Below, piece by piece: positions 2,544-12,615 of a stretch of 12,615 bases of DNA; positions within the stretch are counted from its first letter, which is position 1, and the number at the start of each line of letters is the position of its first letter. The stretch lies in the IMG/VR virus record IMGVR_UViG_2541047681_000005. One strand, 5' to 3'. The notes under the pieces were generated by a model that did no database searches, was not told the origin of the DNA, and worked only from the letters and a program-made list of their open reading frames with translations. The position numbers and the translations under genes are program-made. This DNA comes from a virus. Its lineage: Duplodnaviria > Heunggongvirae > Uroviricota > Caudoviricetes.

Positions 2544-2723
2544 TTACTCCTGCTCTTTGGCCTTGCGGCGCTGGCGGCGTTTGATTTCGCCGCGCATGGC
2601 TGCGTTTATAAACTGTCCCGTGCTTTCGCCTTCTTCTTTCACGTTCTCCATGCCTTCAATAATTTCATGGGCAATACGTGCAGTTACAGATTGTGATTTT
2701 GCATTCTTTGGACCCGTTGCCAT
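2544..2723 (-). CDS. Hypothetical small basic protein (59 aa), divergently transcribed from the left operon
   Basis: Internal ATG at 2721..2723 (complement) preceded by RBS GAGGGG with 6-nt spacing; product MATGPKNAKSQ...EIKRRQRRKAKEQE. Candidate -35/-10 (TTCAAA/TATATT) on the minus strand, overlapped by operator-like repeats. Family not recognised. Confidence 0.45.
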   Translation of the reverse strand: MATGPKNAKSQSVTARIAHEIIEGMENVKEEGESTGQFINAAMRGEIKRRQRRKAKEQE

Positions 2724-2744
2724 GTTTAACCCCTCATGTTTTTG

Positions 2745-2826
2745 GTGTAAGACAATATACACGAAAAAAAAATATTTTGAAGGGTTGACGTGTAAGACAC
2801 CATTGTTTTACATTGTGTCTTACACC
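2745..2826. promoter_or_regulatory. Divergent promoter region with three copies of an 11-bp operator-like motif GTGTAAGACAC
   Basis: Motif at 2745..2755 and 2790..2800 (direct) and 2815..2825 (inverted). Candidate + strand promoter -35 TTGACG (2785..2790) and -10 TTACAT (2808..2813), 17-bp spacer; one operator copy sits in the spacer and the inverted copy at the predicted +1. Candidate minus-strand promoter overlaps the first copy. Confidence 0.55.
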
Positions 2827-2922
2827 TTATTGATGAAAGGCACAGAAACGACGAAACCCCGCACTGTAGGAGCAGTAACGGGGCTTCTAACCACCAACGA
2901 TAGCAACAGTATCGAGGTAGCT

Positions 2923-3123
2923 ATGAGAAATCATACCACACACCCGAAAGGGCGGGACTCGCACAACCTGAATAAATACATCTGGCGTTTTATCGCCCTG
3001 AGCACGGCACAACCGCGCGTGATTACCATTGAGGCCACCAGCGAACAGGAAGCACGCCAGCAATCTCCGGCTGGCTGCGTGATGGTATTTGCTGCCCGTA
3101 TTCGTCAGGGGGTAGGCTTATGA
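2923..3123 (+). CDS. Small protein (66 aa), first gene of the left operon; possibly Icd-like, otherwise hypothetical
   Basis: ATG at 2923 with RBS GAGGT upstream; product MRNHTTHPKGRDSHNLNKYIWRFIALSTAQPRVITIEATSEQEARQQ.... Its stop overlaps the next ATG (ATGA). The Icd-like assignment is a recollection of P4-like prophage annotations and is unverified. Confidence 0.45.
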   Translation: MRNHTTHPKGRDSHNLNKYIWRFIALSTAQPRVITIEATSEQEARQQSPAGCVMVFAARIRQGVGL

Positions 3124-3350
3124 GCCAGGAAATCACACTACAACAGGCAGCAGAACGCGCCCACCAAATCGAAGTTATTTGCGCACTGGCAGAGGATTAC
3201 CCTAGCATGATGACCGACAGCGAATCAGGGGCAATCATCGGCTTACTTAAACGCCTTAGCGGTGAGGTCTGCGTATTCCTGAGCGATGAACAGGAAAGAA
3301 GAACGCTTATTTCTAACGAAAAAAAATGCGGAGGGGTACATGTGCAATAA
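3120..3350 (+). CDS. Hypothetical protein (76 aa)
   Basis: ATG at 3120 overlapping the upstream stop (ATGA), RBS AGGGGG upstream; acidic product. No family recognised. Confidence 0.5.
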   Translation: MSQEITLQQAAERAHQIEVICALAEDYPSMMTDSESGAIIGLLKRLSGEVCVFLSDEQERRTLISNEKKCGGVHVQ

Positions 3351-3795: not shown

Positions 3796-4095
3796 ATGAA
3801 ACTTAAATATTCTGGCTTAACTGCCAGTGGCAAAACTCGCACTAAATTCATGCGCGGTGATATTTACCGCGACCAGTACGGCGGCACGGTAATGATTAAG
3901 GGCGTGGAGGAACGGCGCGTAACCTACCGTCGTGAAGGCTACGAATATGATTGCGTGATGCCTGTTTATCAGTTCGATCGTGATTTTTCTCTGGTGCAGG
4001 CCGTACCGCGTAACGTGCCCACCAGCAGGGAGAAAGCACGCGCCAATATTCAGGAAATAAAAAAGATGCTTAACGTATTCAGGGGTAAGAAATGA
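3796..4095 (+). CDS. Hypothetical protein (99 aa)
   Basis: ATG at 3796 with RBS GGAGA 9 nt upstream; stop overlaps the primase start (ATGA). No family recognised. Confidence 0.55.
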   Translation: MKLKYSGLTASGKTRTKFMRGDIYRDQYGGTVMIKGVEERRVTYRREGYEYDCVMPVYQFDRDFSLVQAVPRNVPTSREKARANIQEIKKMLNVFRGKK

Positions 4096-5846
4096 AACTG
4101 GCACCGAACGTAAAAAAACAACCACGCGGAATAAAACACAAAGACACAGAGGTAATTATTTTCGCGGGTAGTGATGCGTGGTCACATGCAAAACAGTGGC
4201 AGGAGCAGGACGGCCCCGCATCCGGCGATAATGTGCCGCCTGTGTGGCTTGGGCCAAATCAGCTTGCCGAACTTGATGCGCTGAAAATTGTTCCGGATGG
4301 GAAAAAGCGCGTAAGGCTGTACCAGGCCGGAGAACTGGATTTAGTGGAGACCAAAAAGATTGGTCAGAAGCTGGCGGCGGCAGATATTCAGGACGCAAAT
4401 TTTTACCCTGATGGTATGCACGGTCAGAAGGTGGAGAACTGGCGCGAATATCTGGCCCGTGAGCGCCAGAATCTTTCTGATGGTCTGGTCATTGAGCTTC
4501 CGGTAAAGCAAAAGGCGCAACTTTCGCAGATGGCGGACAGTGAGCGCGCGCAGCTGCTTGCCGATCGCTTTGATGGCGTTTGCGTACATCCTGAAAGTGA
4601 AATCGTTCACGTATGGCGCGGCGGGGTATGGTGTCCGGTCAGCACAATGGAACTTAGCCGCGAAATGGTGGCGATCTATTCAGAGCACAGGGCCACTTTC
4701 AGCAAGCGCGTAATCAATAACGCCGTGGAAGCGTTAAAAGTTATTGCCGAACCAATGGGCGAGCCGTCCGGCGATTTGCTGCCGTTCGCCAATGGTGCGC
4801 TTGACCTGAAAACGGGGGAATTTTCCCCGCACACGCCGGAGAACTGGATCACCACGCACAACGGCATTGAGTACACGCCACCAGCACCAGGGGAGAACAT
4901 CCGCGATAACGCGCCAAACTTTCATAAATGGCTTAAGCACGCAGCCGGAAAAGACCCGCGCAAGATGATGCGTATATGTGCCGCGCTGTACATGATTATG
5001 GCGAACCGGTACGACTGGCAGATGTTTATTGAGGCCACCGGAGACGGCGGGAGCGGTAAAAGTACATTCACGCACATAGCCAGCCTTCTGGCAGGGAAAC
5101 AGAACACGGTAAGCGCTGAAATGACATCGCTTGATGATGCTGGTGGACGTGCGCAGGTTGTCGGGAGTCGTCTTATCGTCCTGGCTGACCAGCCGAAATA
5201 TACAGGCGAAGGAACGGGCATCAAGAAAATCACGGGCGGTGACCCCGTGGAAATTAACCCGAAATACGAAAAGCGTTTCACGGCTGTAATCAGGGCGGTG
5301 GTGCTGGCGACCAACAATAACCCGATGATATTCACCGAACGGGCCGGAGGTGTGGCACGTCGTCGCGTGATTTTCCGTTTCGACAATATCGTCAGTGAGG
5401 CCGAAAAAGACAGGGAGCTACCGGAAAAGATCGCGGCTGAAATCCCTGTCATTATCCGCCGATTGCTGGCGAACTTTACCGACCCTGAGAAGGCACGGGC
5501 TTTACTACTGGAACAGCGTGACGGTGATGAAGCACTGGCAATAAAGCAACAGACGGATCCGGTTATTGAGTTTTGCCAGTTCCTGAATTTTCTGGAGGAA
5601 GCGCGCGGCCTGATGATGGGGGGCGGTGGCGATTCAGTGAAGTACACGACCAGGAACAGCCTTTACCGCGTCTATCTGGCGTTTATGGCATACGCAGGCA
5701 GGAGCAAACCGCTAAACGTAAATGACTTTGGAAAGGCTATGAAGCCTGCCGCAAAAGTTTACGGACATGAATATATTACGCGGAAAGTTAAGGGGGTAAC
5801 GCAGACTAACGCAATAACAACAGACGAGTGCGACGCGTTTTTATAA
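4092..5846 (+). CDS. Replication primase/helicase, P4-alpha / D5-like family with P-loop NTPase domain
   Basis: 584-aa ORF with RBS AGGGG upstream; Walker A motif GDGGSGKST, followed by a hydrophobic strand (LIVLADQP) consistent with Walker B. Position after int-alpA and immediately before an iteron cluster matches satellite pri-rep genes. Confidence 0.9.
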   Translation: MKLAPNVKKQPRGIKHKDTEVIIFAGSDAWSHAKQWQEQDGPASGDNVPPVWLGPNQLAELDALKIVPDGKKRVRLYQAGELDLVETKKIGQKLAAADIQDANFYPDGMHGQKVENWREYLARERQNLSDGLVIELPVKQKAQLSQMADSERAQLLADRFDGVCVHPESEIVHVWRGGVWCPVSTMELSREMVAIYSEHRATFSKRVINNAVEALKVIAEPMGEPSGDLLPFANGALDLKTGEFSPHTPENWITTHNGIEYTPPAPGENIRDNAPNFHKWLKHAAGKDPRKMMRICAALYMIMANRYDWQMFIEATGDGGSGKSTFTHIASLLAGKQNTVSAEMTSLDDAGGRAQVVGSRLIVLADQPKYTGEGTGIKKITGGDPVEINPKYEKRFTAVIRAVVLATNNNPMIFTERAGGVARRRVIFRFDNIVSEAEKDRELPEKIAAEIPVIIRRLLANFTDPEKARALLLEQRDGDEALAIKQQTDPVIEFCQFLNFLEEARGLMMGGGGDSVKYTTRNSLYRVYLAFMAYAGRSKPLNVNDFGKAMKPAAKVYGHEYITRKVKGVTQTNAITTDECDAFL

Positions 5847-6134: not shown

Positions 6135-6413
6135 ATGCACACTTCAGGGAAATTTAATAAATCACTCAAAAAACGCAGAGACAGAACAGAACCGAAATAT
6201 CGCGCGTTAGACATGACAGAGCACGCTTTAAAGGTGGCAATCAGAACGATAGACCGCCACGCGGGGGAAGGATACGCGAAAGCACATCCCGAACTGATAA
6301 GCGCATTCATGACCACGACGGCGGCAAATTTTGCCACGCTGACAGAGCGGGAGATTGCCGAAGCGGAACAGGTAACAACCATCAACGTTAAAACCGGAGA
6401 GGTGGAATCATGA
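6135..6413 (+). CDS. Hypothetical protein (92 aa)
   Basis: ATG at 6135 with strong RBS GAGGGGG; stop overlaps the next start (ATGA). No family recognised. Confidence 0.55.
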   Translation: MHTSGKFNKSLKKRRDRTEPKYRALDMTEHALKVAIRTIDRHAGEGYAKAHPELISAFMTTTAANFATLTEREIAEAEQVTTINVKTGEVES

Positions 6414-6832
6414 CAGCACAGATAGCAGCTTACGGGCGGCTGGTGGACGACCCGCAGGTAAAACAGACCAGCAAGGGCACACCGATGACGCTGGCGCGTA
6501 TGGCGGTCCCCCTTCCGTGCAGCCAGGCAGATGACGGAACGGCGACGATGTGGTTATCCGTCCTGGCATTTGGCAGACAGGCCGAAGCACTGGAAAGGCA
6601 CCGCAAGGGTGAACTCCTGAGCGTGGCGGGTAACATGCAGATCAGCCAGTGGACTGGGCAGAACGGAGAAACGCGGCAGGGCTGGCAGGTTATCGCAGAC
6701 AGTGTAATCAGTGCGCGAACGGCGCGACTGGGCGGCAAAAAAGGTCAACAGGGCCAGGCTACTGACGCGCTGAACAGGGCAAAACAACAGGCGGGGAATG
6801 ATGATCCGTACGGGGATAACATACCGTTTTAA
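6410..6832 (+). CDS. SSB-like single-stranded DNA-binding protein (OB fold with SSB-type C-terminal tail)
   Basis: 140-aa ORF with RBS GGAGAGGTGG. N-terminal region aligns by eye with the E. coli SSB OB fold (GRLVDDPQV vs GNLGQDPEV; WLSVLAFGRQAEALERHRKGELLSV vs [25 protein letters not shown]). Gly/Gln-rich linker and C-terminal DDPYGDNIPF resemble the SSB DDDIPF tail. Confidence 0.65.
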   Translation: MTAQIAAYGRLVDDPQVKQTSKGTPMTLARMAVPLPCSQADDGTATMWLSVLAFGRQAEALERHRKGELLSVAGNMQISQWTGQNGETRQGWQVIADSVISARTARLGGKKGQQGQATDALNRAKQQAGNDDPYGDNIPF

Positions 6833-6848
6833 GCGACGAGAGACAGAA

Positions 6849-6870
6849 GCCGGAGCAATCCGGCTTTTTT
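6849..6870 (+). terminator. Rho-independent terminator after the SSB-like gene
   Basis: Hairpin GCCGGA-GCAA-TCCGGC followed by six T (6865..6870). Confidence 0.7.
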
Positions 6871-6908
6871 ACGGGTCCTCCTGGCGGGGTGGGCCTGAAC
6901 ACGGGGCG
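6871..6908 (+). other. Degenerate cos-like sequence (pseudo-cos)
   Basis: ACGGGTCCTCCTGGCGGGGTGGGCCTGAACACGGGGCGGGAAGCGCGG resembles the cosQ/cosN segment at 9313..9360 (ACGGGTCCTTTCCGG...ACGGGGCGGCGACCTCGCGG), and is preceded by the same terminator hairpin, but lacks the intact GGGCGGCGACCT core. Confidence 0.45.
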
Positions 6909-7044
6909 GGAAGCGCGGAAAAAAGCGCATTTTTGTGATTTTATCGTCATCATCATCATGAGCGTAATTTATTGTTTTTAATTGTTTTGATGCAAAAAAG
7001 ATGATGGTTGTGGTTAATTTTCGTTCGACATCTTTGCAGGCAGA

Positions 7045-7087
7045 TAAAAAAGCCCGATAAGGTCAGAGGTGGCTTATCGGGCTTTTG
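7045..7087. terminator. Bidirectional hairpin terminator candidate
   Basis: 11-bp perfect stem AGCCCGATAAG / CTTATCGGGCT with 11-nt loop, A-run upstream and T-run downstream. Confidence 0.5.
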
Positions 7088-7163
7088 CATATGAGGCTTT
7101 TTGGTGCACTGACACACATGAGCGGGATCATCATTTCATAATTTGCAACACAACTCAATATCA

Positions 7164-7212
7164 TTGTACAAAACGCAATCCTGATTATAATCAGAGCTGG
7201 ATGAACATCCAG
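7164..7212 (+). promoter_or_regulatory. Candidate promoter of the capsid operon with overlapping palindromic operators
   Basis: -35 TTGTAC (7164..7169), 16-bp spacer, -10 TATAAT (7186..7191). The -10 lies inside a perfect 14-bp palindrome CTGATTATAATCAG (7181..7194), followed by inverted repeat CTGGATG-AA-CATCCAG (7197..7212). Confidence 0.5.
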
Positions 7213-7247
7213 TTATGATTTTTTAAGTCGAAGAGGAATTTCTTACT

Positions 7248-7454
7248 ATGGCTGAAGAGAAAAAAGGCGGTGTTTCGGTGTACATAAGCCCCGAAATCGT
7301 GGAGGTGCTCAAGCAGCGCCACAAAAAAAACTATGAGGCTGGCGTGGCGGCTGGACTGGATCCGCTGATGACGCCGGAGCCGTCGATAGGTTCACTTGTA
7401 CGCTCTTATTTACTTGCGGCGCTTGGGATGCATAAAAATTATGGGGGTGAATAA
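7248..7454 (+). CDS. Hypothetical protein (68 aa), translationally coupled to the major capsid gene
   Basis: ATG at 7248 with RBS AGAGGA; its stop TAA overlaps the capsid ATG (TAATG). No family recognised. Confidence 0.55.
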   Translation: MAEEKKGGVSVYISPEIVEVLKQRHKKNYEAGVAAGLDPLMTPEPSIGSLVRSYLLAALGMHKNYGGE

Positions 7455-8509
7455 TGGCAGGCAAAGCAACGGCACTTAACACTAACCAGCTTTTCATGTA
7501 CCTGAATCGCGGGGATATTGCGGATTTTAAATTCAGCCCTCTGTTTACTACGCTGTTTTTCCCGAACGTGGCGACATTCAGCACGCAAAACATCATGCTG
7601 GATACCCTGGACATTGAAGAAGTCACCATGTCGGCGTTTTGTTCGCCTATGGTGGGTAGCCAGGTTCAGCGCGATAAAGGGTACGAAACCAGCACGATTA
7701 AACCTGGCTACATGAAGCCAAAGCACGAAATCGATCCAACGAAAACCATCATGCGCATGGCTGGAGAAGATCCGGCACAGCTTAACGACCCTACCTATCG
7801 CCGTATGCGCCTGATTACTGGCAATATGCGCCGCCAGATAAACGCCATAAAAGCGCGCGTGGAATGGCTGGCGGTAAATGCGGTAACGACCGGAAAAAAC
7901 ATCATTGAGGGCGAAGGCATAGAGCGCTATGAAATCGACTGGAAGATACCGGAAAAAAACATCATAGAGCAGGCCGACGGGAAAAAATGGTCAGAGCAGG
8001 ACAAAGAAACCCACGATCCAATCTATGATATCGAACTATACGCCGATCAGGCTGGTTGCCCCGCAAACGTCATGATTATGGGCGCTGAGGTATGGCGAAC
8101 GTTACGCAGCTTTAAAAAATTCCGTGAGCTGTACGATCTTTCCCGTGGTTCAGAATCCGCCGCCGAACTGGCCTGTAAAAACCTGGGCGAAGTGGTGAGC
8201 TTTAAAGGCTATCTTGGTGATCTGGCCCTTATCGTCTATTCCGGCAAATACACTGACAGCGATGGTACCGAAAAATATTTCCTTGAGCCTGATTTGCTGG
8301 TCCTGGGCAACACCAACAATAAAGGGCTGGTGGCCTATGGTGCGATAATGGATCAGGAAGCGGTAAGAACGGGCGCAACACAAAACATGTTTTACCCGAA
8401 AAACTGGATTGAGGACGGCGATCCGGCGATTGAGTACGTGCAGACACACAGTGCACCGCAGCCGGTACCGGCAGATATTCGCAAATTTGTTACCGTCAAA
8501 ATTGGTTAA
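7454..8509 (+). CDS. Major capsid protein, lambda gpE family
   Basis: 351-aa product aligns by eye along its length with lambda gpE (341 aa): [163 protein letters not shown] upstream. Confidence 0.9.
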   Translation: [351 protein letters not shown]

Positions 8510-8521
8510 CGGGGGGATTCT

Positions 8522-8857
8522 ATGGACACTCCATACATTGAGTTATTTGCAGGCAGTCAGCAGGTCGCCACGACGCTGGTACATTTTGCCGCTGATGCTG
8601 GCGTTATTCAGGAATTTACCCCGCTGATGCTGGCAGACAATGGCGAGTTTAAGCCGTGGGATGGTCAGGAATCTGGCAAGGCTGTTTATCTGACCTCGTA
8701 CCCTGTGGACACGTCAAAGCAGAAATCAGCACAGTGTTACAAGACGGGGATTTTCAATATTGCCGCCGTTAACTGGCCTGAGAGCGTCGACACCGATGCG
8801 AAAAAATGCGCCGCCTTTGCGGGTTCTGGCGTATCCGTTCAGCCGCTGGCCCGATAA
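8522..8857 (+). CDS. Head decoration protein, lambda gpD family
   Basis: 111-aa product (lambda gpD is 110 aa) with TPLMLADNGEFKPWDG vs TPLMLDTSSRKLVAWDG and YKTGIFNIAAVNWPESVDTDAKKCAAFAGSGVSVQ vs [44 protein letters not shown] upstream. Order is capsid then decoration, the reverse of lambda (D then E). Confidence 0.85.
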   Translation: MDTPYIELFAGSQQVATTLVHFAADAGVIQEFTPLMLADNGEFKPWDGQESGKAVYLTSYPVDTSKQKSAQCYKTGIFNIAAVNWPESVDTDAKKCAAFAGSGVSVQPLAR

Positions 8858-8869
8858 GCAGGGGGAACG

Positions 8870-9283
8870 ATGGCAACGAATGAAAGCGTCATGACGCTAC
8901 CGCTGGCGAGTAAATTTAAAGCCGAAGCGCGGGCAATGGCTGACAGAGGTTTATCAACCTACGAGGCCGTATATCAACTCAACAAACTGGAAGAGCAGGA
9001 CAAGCCGCGCGCTGATGCGATTATGGCGCTTCATGAACATAACGACTATCAGCCGCTGTTACGTGCAATGGCAAACGTGCCATGTATTAGCGTCGATAAT
9101 GCTCGTGAAATCCTGAACATGACCATAGAGCAGGAGCGCCCAAAGGTTGCGCCGGAGCTTACCGCAGCCTTTGAAAACTTTATGGACATGCACAGCCCGA
9201 AAGCCGTATCACCCGGCATGGCATACGACGGCAGAAACCAGGGCGATGAAGGCGACGTCGATCGCATACTGAAAACCATCTGA
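8870..9283 (+). CDS. Hypothetical protein (137 aa), last gene before cos
   Basis: ATG at 8870 with RBS AGGGGGA; followed by a strong terminator. No clear similarity to lambda FI or other remembered head proteins. Confidence 0.6.
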   Translation: MATNESVMTLPLASKFKAEARAMADRGLSTYEAVYQLNKLEEQDKPRADAIMALHEHNDYQPLLRAMANVPCISVDNAREILNMTIEQERPKVAPELTAAFENFMDMHSPKAVSPGMAYDGRNQGDEGDVDRILKTI

Positions 9284-9289
9284 CATAAG

Positions 9290-9312
9290 GCCGGAGAAAT
9301 CCGGCTTTTTTT
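9290..9312 (+). terminator. Rho-independent terminator after the capsid operon
   Basis: Hairpin GCCGGA-GAAA-TCCGGC followed by seven T (9306..9312); near-identical to the hairpin at 6849..6870. Confidence 0.75.
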
Positions 9313-9445
9313 ACGGGTCCTTTCCGGCATATGGACCCGTTACGGGGCGGCGACCTCGCGGGTTTTCGCTATTTATGACGTTTTTCCGTGAAGGTGACAC
9401 CACCACCACTTGATTAATATTTAACCATGCGGTTAAGGTAACATT
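9313..9445 (+). other. Lambda-type cos site (cosQ-like, cosN, short cosB) upstream of the TerS-like gene
   Basis: TACGGGTCCTTTCCGG...GTTACG|GGGCGGCGACCTCGCGGGTTTTCGCTATTTATGA closely matches the lambda cohesive-end region as remembered. Predicted 12-nt cohesive end GGGCGGCGACCT at 9345..9356. One R-site-like element (CGTTTTTCCGTG, about 9381..9392) and an AT-rich stretch follow. Confidence 0.75.
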
Positions 9446-9886
9446 ATGATTGATAAAGCTTGTTTTGTAAGTCAGCAGGAAATAGCTGAACATTTCAAGG
9501 TTAACAGAACCACTATTCGCGCATGGACCAAACAGGGGATGCCGTATCTTAATGCGGATCGCGGAAAGTCTGGCGGTTATCACATCGGGCATACATTGCT
9601 TTGGTCTTCAGGTAAAAGCCGTCTTGAGGCCATCAGATATCACGTAGAAACCAGTGCGCTGGAAAAAATTATGTTTGCCAGGCTGCTTTCATCTGAGCGT
9701 GACGAGTACTCCAGTGAAGAAACAGAACATCGATTTGATGAAGGTTTGCAGATTTACGGCTATTCACCGGAAGATGTGAGCAAGGCACGAAATAAAATGG
9801 CTGGCTTTCTGGCTGGGTGGCGTCATGCCGTAAGCGTTCGCCGTGCCAGCATGGAACAATCAGTCGTTACAGAACAGCAAAGTTAA
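9446..9886 (+). CDS. Small terminase-like protein, lambda Nu1-type DNA-binding N-terminus with divergent C-terminus (TerS/Rpp-like)
   Basis: 146-aa ORF about 90 bp downstream of cosN, as Nu1 is in lambda. N-terminus QQEIAEHFKVNRTTIRAWTKQGMPYL aligns with Nu1 KKQLADIFGASIRTIQNWQEQGMPVL (winged HTH). Shorter than Nu1 (181 aa) and the C-terminal region does not resemble Nu1's. Confidence 0.7.
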   Translation: MIDKACFVSQQEIAEHFKVNRTTIRAWTKQGMPYLNADRGKSGGYHIGHTLLWSSGKSRLEAIRYHVETSALEKIMFARLLSSERDEYSSEETEHRFDEGLQIYGYSPEDVSKARNKMAGFLAGWRHAVSVRRASMEQSVVTEQQS

Positions 9887-9915
9887 AAATCACTTTCTGT
9901 TACGCCATCAAATAC

Positions 9916-10012
9916 GCAATACAACAACCACGTATTTTTTTAAAACTATTTGATTCAATTAGCATTTTTTTATTTTTAGCATCAAAAAAACACTATCAGG
10001 TTGTTGTATTGC
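9916..10012. repeat. 14-bp perfect inverted repeat flanking a 69-bp AT-rich spacer
   Basis: GCAATACAACAACC (9916..9929) and its reverse complement GGTTGTTGTATTGC (9999..10012); a further direct ACAACAACC copy lies near 10060. Spacer contains T/A runs and repeated TAGCATTTTT. Confidence 0.55.
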
Positions 10013-10090
10013 TCTTTATTTTTACTTAGTTATCAAATGGATATGACAAACAATTAAACAACAACCTCCCTCTAAAAAAGCTCATAAATA

Positions 10091-10145
10091 GCGAAAAACC
10101 GCGAGGTCGCCGCCCCGTAACGGGCCATAATTCCAGGAAGGACCC
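10091..10145 (-). other. Second cos-like sequence in inverted orientation (cosQ/cosN-like, no recognisable cosB)
   Basis: Reverse complement of 10091..10145 reads CGGGTCCTTCCTGGAATTATGGCCCGTTACGGGGCGGCGACCTCGCGGTTTTTCGCTATTTATGA, about 85% identical to cos at 9313..9380 including an intact GGGCGGCGACCT. No R-site-like element or TerS gene follows it on the minus strand. Confidence 0.6.
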
Positions 10146-10179
10146 GACGACACCAGACTATCAGAACGATGGGGGCACA

Positions 10180-10461
10180 ATGACAGAAGCCGAAATACTG
10201 CGATTAATCCGCCGCGTTGCCGGAATCAGCCAGCAGCATGACGAACAGGCCACGCAGCCGGACAGCGTGACCGCTGAAAATTATGTGCGTGTTGTTGCTG
10301 AGGTGATGCGCCGTGATGGTATCCAGCTTAATGATGTTGATATGCGCGACATACGGATCCGCGTTCTGGAAATGCTGGCCTACAATCGCCGCGTTGAACT
10401 GTATCGGGAGAAAGAAAAAATAACGTACCACTGGAAGAAGCCGGAGCGGTTGCGGCGGTAA
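10180..10461 (+). CDS. Hypothetical protein (93 aa)
   Basis: ATG at 10180 with RBS GGGGGC upstream; charged product (MTEAEILRLIRRVAG...). No family recognised. Whether it belongs to the satellite or the junction region is unresolved. Confidence 0.5.
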   Translation: MTEAEILRLIRRVAGISQQHDEQATQPDSVTAENYVRVVAEVMRRDGIQLNDVDMRDIRIRVLEMLAYNRRVELYREKEKITYHWKKPERLRR

Positions 10462-11154
10462 CTGGTTGATATTTTCGAAATTCGCCAGCGGCGAACATCG
10501 GGGAAACCAGCCTAACCCGTTGATATTTTCGGAAACCTCAATTTGAGGAAGTCGGCGCGGTAACTCGCTGAACTTAAAGCAAAGCGCAAAATTGCGCTTG
10601 CTGAATAATCATTATGATTACGCAGATGATTAAGGAATGACCGAAGGCGGAAATTCGCCTGTGGTTAATGGGGGAGTTGCAGATCTGCAACTCGACCATG
10701 AAACTACGGAAACTACCCGTAGTTTGGGTAGTAAGAGTAACACCCAGATTTTGGGGCTTACTCGTGATACCCAAATTTGGGGTATCGGTGGCAACCATAA
10801 CGACTTTCGTTACGGTTGATGCTTTTACCCCATTGGGGGAAAGGTATTACGATAATCATAACACCTACCGAACAGGTAAAGCCCACCAGCCTGATTAACG
10901 TTTAACCGGAAAAAAATTCCGGTAGGTGGGGATCCCCATATAGACATTAACGCCCCTCATGAATTGGTGCGCTTCCCCCTGGAAAGATGATCCGCCTGTA
11001 TATTTCTTGTGTCTATTTGTTCCACGTTGTTTCATACGGTGCACCGAACGGTGTAGTTAATGGTGTAGTCAATTTGCGATTTTTGGCACTTTTTCAGTGT
11101 AGATTATTTAATTAAATCAATGGTTTGTCTTGATATAGTGATAAAAGGACATAT
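10462..11154. other. Palindrome-dense non-coding tract between the last satellite ORF and phoQ (possible attR region or structured RNA)
   Basis: No convincing ORF. Direct repeat TAAC-nGTTGATATTTTCG-AAA at about 10459 and 10513. Hairpin-forming palindromes roughly every 30 bp, e.g. AAGCGCAAAATTGCGCTT, GTTGCAGATCTGCAAC, GATACCCAAATTTGGGGTATC, CCGGAAAAAAATTCCGG, TGGGGATCCCCA, CGGTGCACCG. Tandem GGTGTAGT(T/C)AAT at 11050..11073. Confidence 0.4.
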
Positions 11155-12615
11155 TTATTCATCTTTCGGCGCAGAATGCTGGCGACCAAAAATCACTTCC
11201 ATCCGCGCACCGCCCAGCATGCTCTCTCCGGCGACGATTTTACCCTCATATTGCTCGGTGATTTCGCGGGCTACCGCCAGCCCCACACCTTGCCCAGGGC
11301 GTAAAGTATCAACCCGTTGACCACGGTCGAAAATGACCTCTCGCTTGCTTAATGGAATACCGGGGCCATCATCCTCGACCACAATATAGAGATGCTCGTC
11401 GGTTTGCCTTGCAGAAATTTCGACAAACTCGAGGCAATATTTACAGGCGTTATCCAGCACGTTGCCCATCACTTCGACAAAATCATTCTGCTCACCAACA
11501 AAGCTGATTTCTGGCGAGATATCGAGAGAGATATTGACCCCTTTGCGTTGATACACTTTGTTCAGCGCCGAGGTGAGATTGTCCAACAGTGGCGCGACCG
11601 GATGCAGCTCGCGGCTAAGCAATGTCCCGCCGCGCATACTGGCACGATGCAGGTAGTAGCCAATTTGCTGTGAAATGCGGCTGATTTGCTCCAGCATTAC
11701 CGGCTCAGCATCACTGACGCTCATCTTCTCACTACGCAGAGAACGCAGCGTACTTTGCAGCACCGCCAGTGGCGTTTTCAGACTATGGGTCAGGTCGGTG
11801 AGCGTTGTACGATATTTGTCGTAACGTTCGCGTTCACTTTTTAACAGTCGGTTCAGGTTTCGTACCAGACTGGTCAGTTCTCGCGTTGTGGCTGGATTGA
11901 GCAATTCACGGTTATGTTCTTCCAGTTCGCGGACTTCTTTTGCCAGGGCTTCGATGGGGCGTAAACTCCACCAGGCGGCGACCCACAGCAGCGGGATCAC
12001 TAACAGCAGATTGGCTGAGAGCACATAGATAAACCAGCTCCAGACCATATAGGAACTTTTTAGCTCCACCGGAATGGTATCCACCACCACAATGGTTAAC
12101 TTTGGCATCCGCGATGTTGCCGGGTAGACGTTTACCGCCACCGAGTGGGTCATCTCCGCGTCGTCATCATCTTCCCGCACTTCCTGCAACTGTTGCTGTA
12201 TCGAATGATCTCCACTCAGCAAGAGGCTGGTATCGTTAACATCCGCTTCAATTTCATGAAAACCATTCGATTTCAGCCAGTCAGGCTGGATCATCTTCAT
12301 CAGCCAGGGCACGTCACGTTGCGCCCATAAAAGCTGCCCGTTCTCATCATAAATTAGTGTCATCGTGGGGCTTTGCTTGTCGATATTTTCGGGTAACTCG
12401 ACATGCAACTTATTGTTTTCCCACTTCGCAAGGGTATAGAACAGATTGCTCTCGCCACGTAACAGCCGAAACGTGGTTTTATCGAAACTGACGCTATAAC
12501 CGATCAGCGCAACCATTCCGTAGGCAAGCGAAAGCACCAATACTACTGCTGCCGTTGCTAACAGAAAACGTACCCGCAGCGAGAGCGGGAAAAAAAGATG
12601 CAGTAATTTTTTCAT
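11155..12615 (-). CDS. phoQ: Sensor histidine kinase PhoQ (PhoP/PhoQ two-component system), complete
   Basis: 486-aa minus-strand ORF whose ATG is the last codon of the window. Two transmembrane segments, periplasmic acidic cluster EDDDDAE, H-box [15 protein letters not shown] and G-box DDGPGIP; reads as full-length Escherichia/Shigella-type PhoQ. Confidence 0.97.

Follow-up and report, generated by a model that had tools for sequence, protein, structure and literature searches.

The window considered here, a stretch of 12,615 nucleotides (IMG/VR record IMGVR_UViG_2541047681_000005), contains an island of approximately 11 kb which is an allele of EcCICFT073, that is, a phage-inducible chromosomal island (PICI) of the EcCICFT073 cohesive-end (cos) type. 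The window extends from the start codon of a tyrosine integrase gene (1–1230) to the start codon of phoQ (11155–12615, minus strand), and the island lies between roxA and phoQ. Two cos sites face each other across rpp (9446–9886, plus strand), which specifies a 146-aa protein of the RppA type [PDB 6hlk RppC, 5.7e-31] nearly identical to RppA of CFT073 (gene at 11400–11834 of our CFT073 locus, L003). The arm of cos1 (9314–9385, plus strand) comprises the cosQ heptamer GGGTCCT (9315–9321) and the cosN 12-mer (9345–9356) at the lambda spacing of 30 nt, a layout identical to that printed as “CFT073 cos.1” (Fig S5, PMC6092414). It is abutted by a terminator hairpin with a T-run (9290–9312, hairpin 9290–9305, plus strand; −14.0 kcal/mol, z = −5.2), which follows the gene of a 137-aa protein (8870–9283). 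An island-specific cosB box, R3-PICI GGTGACACCACCACCAC (9393–9409, plus strand), lies 37 nt past the cos1 12-mer and has been proposed as the binding site of an Rpp-TerS complex (PMC9026076). The arm of cos2 (10075–10146, minus strand) has its cosN 12-mer at 10104–10115 and its cosQ GGGTCCT at 10139–10145, again 30 nt apart. Its cosQ side adjoins the 5′ leader of a 93-aa open reading frame (ORF; 10180–10461, plus strand), the conserved last gene of the island.

The arms of cos1 and cos2 form a 72-nt inverted repeat, 86% complementary and with 689 nt between them; the next longest inverted pair in the window measures only 31 nt, at 71%. The exact 12-mer GGGCGGCGACCT, for which about 0.0015 matches would be expected by chance, occurs at 9345(+) and 10104(−), 759 bp apart and nowhere else in the window, and an exact 26-nt block is common to both arms (9336–9361 and 10099–10124). 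The heptamer GGGTCCT, which we take to be that of lambda cosQ, is found three times in the 12.6 kb [6873(+), 9315(+) and 10145(−)], always 30–31 nt upstream of ACGGGGCGG. At cos2 the 12-mer stands in the flanking ACG...CGC nick context, and the distance to cosQ is that of lambda and phage 21. The inverted arm is present beside the 93-aa ORF in 651 of 5,426 complete E. coli genomes and hence is not an assembly artefact. The initial annotation had reported, near the main cos, an inverted cos-like copy with an intact core on the opposite strand, and this is borne out: the copy is a genuine cos-type site. The reservations made with it, namely an assembly join or a want of similarity to cos, are answered by sequence features far beyond chance and by its occurrence in those genomes and in 70 IMG/VR contigs. 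What did not stand are two points of description, the lack of a cosB at this copy and the degeneracy of a third one, to which we return below.

Read in its own direction, cos2 combines, on the evidence of its sequence, an island-type cosQ arm and a lambda-type cosN with a complete phage-type cosB of its own, and with this structure it faces cos1 across rpp. This cosB (cosB2; 9919–10066, minus strand) is composed of three copies of one motif separated by AT-rich spacers: an R3-like box GGTTGTTGTTTAATTG (10051–10066), an inverted R2-like box ATACAACAACC (9999–10009) and an R1-like box GGTTGTTGTAT (9919–9929), all three on the minus strand and at the canonical distances. The R3-like box starts 38 nt past the 12-mer, just as the R3 annotated in phage 21 does. 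The cos2 flank can be aligned with the sequence immediately upstream of the Nu1-family terS, terL and portal genes of a prophage in E. coli O121:H19, the boxes being identical at 38 of 38 positions and the sequence outside them at 94 of 139 (Fisher p = 3e-6). When cosB2 was searched in sequenced phages the match was confined to the cosQ–cosN part; matches to cosB2 came from prophages in E. coli genomes. The earlier statement that the inverted copy has no cosB was therefore mistaken.

As in lambda, phage 21 and the Nu1-type lambdoid prophages, cos2 of the window has its cosQ 30 nt before an identical 12-nt cosN, an I2-like stretch, R3 at +38 and an inverted R2/R1 pair, and the whole region aligns with prophage cos. 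It differs from them in that it converges on rpp, reading into the 3′ end of that gene with no terS-terL after it, whereas the homologous prophage sites do precede terS-terL. Its R-box sequence is neither that of lambda nor that of phage 21, and its cosQ side is island-specific, with 71–77% identity to phages.

Other islands of this type have cos2 sites of comparable build. In CFT073 the cos2 flank shares 98% identity over its first 110 nt with a prophage cosB which has boxes ATGTCCGG / CCGGACAT and lies upstream of a Nu1-type terS at a distance of 49 nt; about 1,185 genomes contain matches to this flank. In PA45B cos2 the elements I2, R3, I1 and R1 have the offsets of the phage 21 annotation, and cos2 of O55:H7 has the lambda layout with CAGATCC boxes. 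The cosQ side of these arms is island-specific throughout, with 91–97% identity among islands and 68–77% to phages, and the flank is of phage type, so that the switch between the two types of sequence falls at the conserved cosN. The resident helper was considered as an explanation of CFT073 cos2. Helper prophage phi4, which the printed cos sequence identifies with the icd-site prophage of CFT073, has a cosB 100% identical to that of phage 21, which does not match CFT073 cos2.

The core of the finding is already known, since the inverted copy (10075–10146) is the homologue of the published cos2 of EcCICFT073. Over −45 to +20 its arm has 96% identity to that of CFT073 cos2; the layout is common to both, the CFT073 12-mers lying at L003 11299(+) and 12038(−) on either side of rppA; and the CFT073 inverted copy, when reverse-complemented, gives the “CFT073 cos.2” printed beside cos.1 in Fig S5 of PMC6092414. 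Both sites were described and tested by Fillol-Salom et al. in 2018 (ISME J, PMC6092414) and 2019 (Mol Cell, PMC6739421), and the two-cos layout as first noted, with its implied novelty, thus adds nothing new. In those studies cloned cos1 or cos2, each alone, let lambda and phi80 transfer a plasmid, and transfer of EcCICFT073 went down upon deletion of cos1, up upon deletion of cos2 (with lambda as with phi80; PMC6092414) and was abolished when both were deleted (PMC6092414, PMC6739421). CFT073 cos2 is accordingly a functional site which lambda and phi80 helpers can do without and which comes at a cost with these helpers; this upholds the earlier view that an inverted copy is not needed for unit-length packaging. 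A response to RppA is shown by the cosB of cos1 only, which is also needed for RppA-stimulated transfer (PMC6739421). No phage cosB was held to be identifiable at either site (PMC6092414, PMC6739421), and the published account leaves cos2, so described, unexplained.

The word “inverted” is absent from the main texts of both papers, and in our literature search cos2 together with EcCICFT073 was mentioned only in these two; the terms “cos2”, “two cos” and “second cos” are absent from the 2022 review by Murialdo and Feiss. A search of the literature for the behaviour of inverted cos sites yielded nothing relevant, nor did one for the core sequence of the third site discussed below. The published and the present cos2 are alike in inverted orientation and in their place between rpp and the last ORF, and differ in their cosB cassettes, CFT073 having CCGGACAT boxes and the window GGTTGTTGT boxes, with 51% identity in that part. 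A parallel cited in PMC6092414 comes from the pathogenicity islands of Staphylococcus aureus (SaPIs): SaPIbov4 is reported to have two putative cos sites. SaPIbov5 carries its helper's cos. The cos-type SaPIs resemble the island of the window as satellites with a helper-type cos for packaging by the helper terminase; they are Gram-positive elements, and their cos sequences are unrelated.

Related islands were surveyed in 70 IMG/VR contigs obtained by an exact search for the cos2-type arm, together with earlier loci; as the sample was chosen by this arm, it cannot give the frequency of cos2. In 65 loci one lambda-type site lies on the side of the 137-aa gene and another on that of the 93-aa ORF, and in all 65 the two are convergent and inverted, as they are in CFT073, GmF052, PA45B and O55:H7. 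Both cosQ and the ACGGGGCGG nick region (with no more than one mismatch) are retained in 65 of the 65 two-site islands; the exact 12-mer is present in 62 of the cos2 copies, with a one-base difference in the other three. The cosB types on the two sides are variously combined. Where the 137-aa side is of the 180-aa TerS type, the 93-aa side is phage-21-like in 16 loci and of the CAGATCC type in 16 others; where it is of the Rpp type, the 93-aa side has CCGGACAT boxes in 12 loci and GGTTGTTGT boxes, the window's type, in 11. The rpp-less islands pair CCGGACAT on the 137-aa side with GGTTGTTGT on the 93-aa side (6 loci) or the reverse (4 loci). An island-specific cosB stands on the 137-aa side in 55 of 55 loci which keep rpp or terS. 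The cosB2 cassette, by comparison, varies with the same protein, RppA being accompanied by two types and the 180-aa TerS by two others. Judged by these sequence pairings, the box set of cos2 is a swappable cassette of at least four types, independent of the rpp or terS type.

The arms themselves recombine. In L032 (E. coli S1-CAM-02-A, yejO site; 2632–3295 in island orientation), L039 and L046 rpp has been lost and two convergent phage-type cos sites lie 524 bp apart, CCGGACAT and GGTTGTTGT cosB surrounding a tail-to-tail remnant of two rpp 3′ ends. These rpp-less islands occur as two inversion isomers. When L039 is compared with L046, the 512 bp lying between the 12-mers reach 99.6% identity only if one of the two is reverse-complemented, the outer flanks remaining co-linear. 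By the testimony of these isomers the cos arms are points of recombination in nature. The suggestion that inverted copies record exchange with helper genomes is likewise supported, given the 98% match of the CFT073 flank to a prophage cosB, the shuffling of cosB cassettes and the isomers. In L052 the same G-to-T substitution (GGGCGTCGACCT) is found in both 12-mers, at 9535(+) and 10294(−), which suggests gene conversion between the inverted arms; elsewhere changes affect a single copy, as for example cos1 GGGCGGAGACCT in L005, L048, L076 and L087. Natural loss of cos2 is seen in seven of the 70 contigs (L044, L057, L062, L077, L092, L093 and L098), where it is half-deleted by a cut in the middle of the 12-mer, GGGCGGCG being followed by GTTA..., and the deletion reaches the 3′ end of the 180-aa terS.

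A cos1-type site with an R3-PICI box is present at the loci of Rpp homologues in K. quasipneumoniae, Phytobacter palmae and Salmonella, with no inverted second site within 3 kb. In these Klebsiella, Phytobacter and Salmonella islands (L010, L013, L014 and L015) the box (A)CACCACCACCAC stands at the same distance past cosN; the Klebsiella island has the lambda 12-mer, and those of Phytobacter and Salmonella differ from it (GGGCGGCAGACT, GGGCGACGCGCT and GGGCGGAGCGCT). The island of S. enterica subsp. salamae has two tandem rpp-like genes and is inserted in a prophage capsid gene. In the island of E. coli Ec1115 (L021, clpS site) the cos2 position, at 2445(−), holds a second site which is inverted and of the kind seen in mEp460 / DUF1441 phages rather than of the lambda type, which indicates that the inverted slot accepts cos regions of another family. 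Species-representative genomes yielded neither a relative by the 137-aa protein nor an exact match to the cos2-type arm, so that taxonomic breadth beyond E. coli rests on the few Rpp homologues.

The third of the GGGTCCT heptamers belongs to a site, here called cos3 (6866–7035, plus strand), with GGGTCCT at 6873–6879, ACGGGGCGG at 6901–6909, the core GGGCGGGAAGCGCGG, an R3-like box CATCATCATCAT (6948–6959) and an inverted GATGATGG (7000–7007). It is abutted by a terminator hairpin GCCGGAGCAATCCGGC with a T-run (6849–6870, plus strand; −15.4 kcal/mol, z = −5.2), which follows ssb and is a paralogue of the hairpin at 9290–9305. The initial annotation was correct in placing this copy after the same hairpin as the main cos (−15.4 and −14.0 kcal/mol, both with z of about −5), and misleading in calling it a degenerate copy. 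Positions 6842–6909 and 9282–9350 are identical at 55 of 71 positions (score 63; shuffle maximum 26), a likeness to cos1 which is largely due to the common hairpin, GGGTCCT and ACGGGGCGG. With the hairpin excluded, the similarity to lambda-type cos is marginal (28/40, score 23; shuffle mean 15.7, sd 2.6, max 30). The segment 6866–7035 is instead 87–90% identical over approximately 170 nt to the sequence which separates Rz from the small terminase gene in VT1-Sakai, several Stx2-converting phages and an O103 prophage; weaker matches include CP-1639 (84% over 108 nt) and mEp460, Eeyore and PhiR40_1 (75–79%). The small terminase is of the DUF1441 family in the O103 prophage and mEp460, the two that were scanned. 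The site also matches the presumed cos position of helper-embedded satellites (preprint 10.1101/2022.07.18.500453). The possibility of a decayed lambda cos is ruled out by the Stx-type phage homologues.

By its homology and its cosQ–cosN–R-box layout the third site is a well-conserved member of a different, Stx-phage-type family of putative cos regions. No record of cohesive ends was found for the Stx-type/mEp460-type group, in which the phage records used begin at terS or at prophage coordinates. In these phages the homologous regions lie upstream of the DUF1441-terS and in the 11capE helper-embedded satellites at the cos position; the site of the window differs in that it follows ssb, lies upstream of cos1 by 2,441 bp and shares its island with two lambda-type sites. 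It was found in 14 of the surveyed loci, always on the same strand as cos1 and in 13 of them 2,439–2,443 bp upstream of it; the only such site found in L058 is 11,056 bp away from cos1. CFT073 does not have it, perC taking its place there. The R3 position can be occupied by three related triplet-repeat boxes, those of the TerS islands, the Rpp type and the Stx type (CATCATCATCAT); in the 180-aa TerS islands (L004 and L002) cos1 has as its first cosB box GGTGGTGGTGGTGG, whose reverse complement is the CCACCACCACC motif in the Rpp-type box (9393–9409 of the window).

A lambdoid terminase packages from cosN towards cosB, and termination requires cosQ followed by cosN in the direction of travel. 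We propose, with a probability of roughly 55%, that the island is furnished with several cos sites, suited to helpers that differ in specificity, and that inversion prevents the terminase from deleting rpp. On this proposal cos1 would be read by the Rpp-TerS heterocomplex, giving rightward packaging, and cos2 by the unmodified Nu1-type TerS of any helper with matching R-boxes (in the window those of the GGTTGTTGT type), giving leftward packaging. That cos2 might permit packaging in the opposite direction had been suggested at the outset, and its orientation does imply that packaging from it would run the other way. Each run would end at the next copy of the same site in a concatemer, after about four 11-kb units (approximately 44 kb). 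The site at 6866–7035 would likewise serve Stx-type phages with a DUF1441 small terminase, and the island would hold, as it were, keys to packaging by helpers of several specificities. In cos2 the cosB part would be the cassette, traded at the conserved cosN with phages or with other islands.

The invariant orientation may be explained in the same way. Were identical cosQ–cosN units present as direct repeats, a full head could terminate at either, deleting or duplicating the 759-bp rpp segment; with the sites inverted, a translocating terminase would meet the other one backwards and the loss or duplication of rpp would be avoided, which could account for the inversion in all 65 loci. If both sites were cut in one molecule, the inner fragment would have two identical and non-complementary overhangs; such ends would let cos2 lower transfer with a non-cognate helper, consistent with the published rise upon its deletion. 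Cutting and rejoining by terminase might, beside homologous recombination, be a route to inversion. In its fullest form, which we advance as tentative and would not ourselves bet on, the proposal gives the EcCICFT073 family a ring of keys, as many as three complete cos sites that differ in small-terminase specificity, so that helper families unrelated to one another might package one island, in either direction and in the absence of Rpp, the DNA between the two inverted cosN sites also being invertible.

Several observations weigh against the proposal of helper-specific sites. Among Rpp islands, those of K. quasipneumoniae and S. enterica subsp. salamae have a cos1-type site and no cos2, as does the island of E. 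coli EC93, and the half-deleted copies in seven of 70 contigs indicate that cos2 is dispensable. The phage-21 cosB of phi4 is unlike CFT073 cos2 (52% identity). Should the cognate TerS be bound by Rpp as well, use of cos2 would be blocked. Finally, the core of the third site, GGGCGGGAAGCGCGG, is two bases off the phage version GGGCGGGCGGCGCGG, at positions which also vary among the phages themselves.

The principal alternative takes cos2 and the third site for non-adaptive products of recombination, captured at cosN from the cos regions of helpers or other islands, maintained by hitch-hiking, homogenised by gene conversion, and neutral or mildly harmful. It would agree with the rise in lambda and phi80 transfer when cos2 is deleted (PMC6092414), with the absence or half-deletion of cos2 in some relatives, with the mismatch between the cosB of the CFT073 helper and its cos2, and with the arms having recombined to give inversion isomers and an rpp-less derivative; the 98% identity of a cosB2 flank to prophage cosB over 110 nt points to recent acquisition, and the G-to-T change in both 12-mers of one island suggests conversion. 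It sits poorly, however, with the retention of cosQ and the ACGGGGCGG region in every two-site island and of the exact cos2 12-mer in 62 of 65, with the perfect conservation of three R-boxes against 68% identity in the spacers, with a cassette that is replaced by other intact cosB types instead of decaying, and with the occurrence of the arm in 651 complete genomes. We consider this explanation possible but rather unlikely.

Less probable by far is that cos2 serves as a decoy which soaks up free helper terminase, or causes abortive convergent packaging, in addition to the interference mediated by Rpp. Its phage-type cosB is one which free TerS could presumably bind, and PICIs replicate to high copy number, both of which would favour a decoy; yet cutting at cos2 would harm the island's own concatemers as well, cosB2 is often of a type unlike that of the known helper, and the interference exerted by EcCICFT073 has been attributed to Rpp (PMC6739421). 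We would give slightly less credence still to an invertible-segment switch, flipping rpp or swapping the joins between cosB and arm. The rpp-less islands do occur in both inversion isomers, with a 512-bp inner segment 99.6% identical as the reverse complement only, but the island-specific cosB is on the 137-aa side in all 55 islands keeping rpp or terS, a dedicated invertase is lacking, and rpp, once inverted, would run antisense to its operon. There is virtually no case for chance similarity or an assembly artefact, in view of the expectation of about 0.0015 12-mers, the 72-nt arms, the 651 complete genomes and the 70 IMG/VR contigs. As for the interpretation first given, its genuine, dispensable cos-type site and its exchange with helpers have been upheld, and its absent cosB, degenerate copy and novelty have not.

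From the sequence comparisons, four points appear to be new: the nature of cos2 as a full phage-type cos with a swappable cosB cassette, its invariant orientation, the recombination of the arms in nature, and the presence of a Stx-phage-type third cos region in some islands. If cos2 and the third site are helper-type sites suited to other terminase specificities, the helper range of this widespread family of E. coli virulence islands would be broader than the Rpp model predicts; it would be independent of Rpp and predictable from the cosB boxes. This would bear upon which prophages, Stx phages included, can spread these islands, and upon the design of PICI-based delivery vehicles.

The remainder of the island conforms to a Gram-negative PICI of the Rpp type by gene annotation, Pfam and the RppC structure match: an integrase, AlpA, a primase/replication module, rpp and cos are present in about 11 kb, with candidate attachment site (att) repeats at a specific site. 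Its genes include those of an AlpA-like regulator (1596–1784), a D5-type primase (4092–5846), SSB (6410–6832), a lambda gpE-like major capsid protein (7454–8509) [Pfam Phage_cap_E, 6e-52] and a gpD-like decoration protein (8522–8857). A copy 99.4% identical lies between roxA and phoQ in E. coli GmF052, and EcCICFT073 is at the same roxA/phoQ site in CFT073, with the same integrase protein and the same gene order. The capsid and decoration genes (7454–8857) are found in CFT073 as well (L003 9409–10811); EcCICFT073 has been described as lacking capsid morphogenesis genes and as packaged in phage-sized heads (2018 ISME J paper, PMC6092414). A promoter and terminator scan of 6780–10500 gave no enrichment over shuffles and no alternative role for the cos2 region.

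The right-hand end is marked by a candidate att core CGGTGTAGTTAATGGTGTAGT (11049–11069, plus strand), one copy of a 21-bp direct repeat of which the left copy lies 46 nt before the start of the window (L001), the distance from repeat to repeat being 11,095 bp. A metagenome contig of 11,098 bp, L061 (IMGVR_UViG_3300045988_152974), has a 119-nt terminal direct repeat and contains cos3, cos1 and cos2. Apparently this is an island of the window's type, about 10,979 bp long, in circular or concatemeric form, and the boundary drawn from the 21-bp repeat may thus be slightly off. At either length four units amount to approximately 44 kb, which is lambda-sized.

The 93-aa ORF has no Pfam match. It is the last gene in several types of satellite, that is, cos PICIs, an element with P27-type terS plus terL, ClpP-capsid fusion elements and helper-embedded satellites (L019, L020, L022 and L023), and other satellite types which do not have cos2 end in this same ORF. 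In CFT073 the island cos1 [L003 11299(+)] and the cos of the icd prophage [L027 27745(+)] are in the same orientation and 37.2 kb apart, a distance close to the lower packaging limit of the lambda head. Packaging in situ from CFT073 cos1 could in principle end at the prophage cos, carrying phoPQ-purB-icd.

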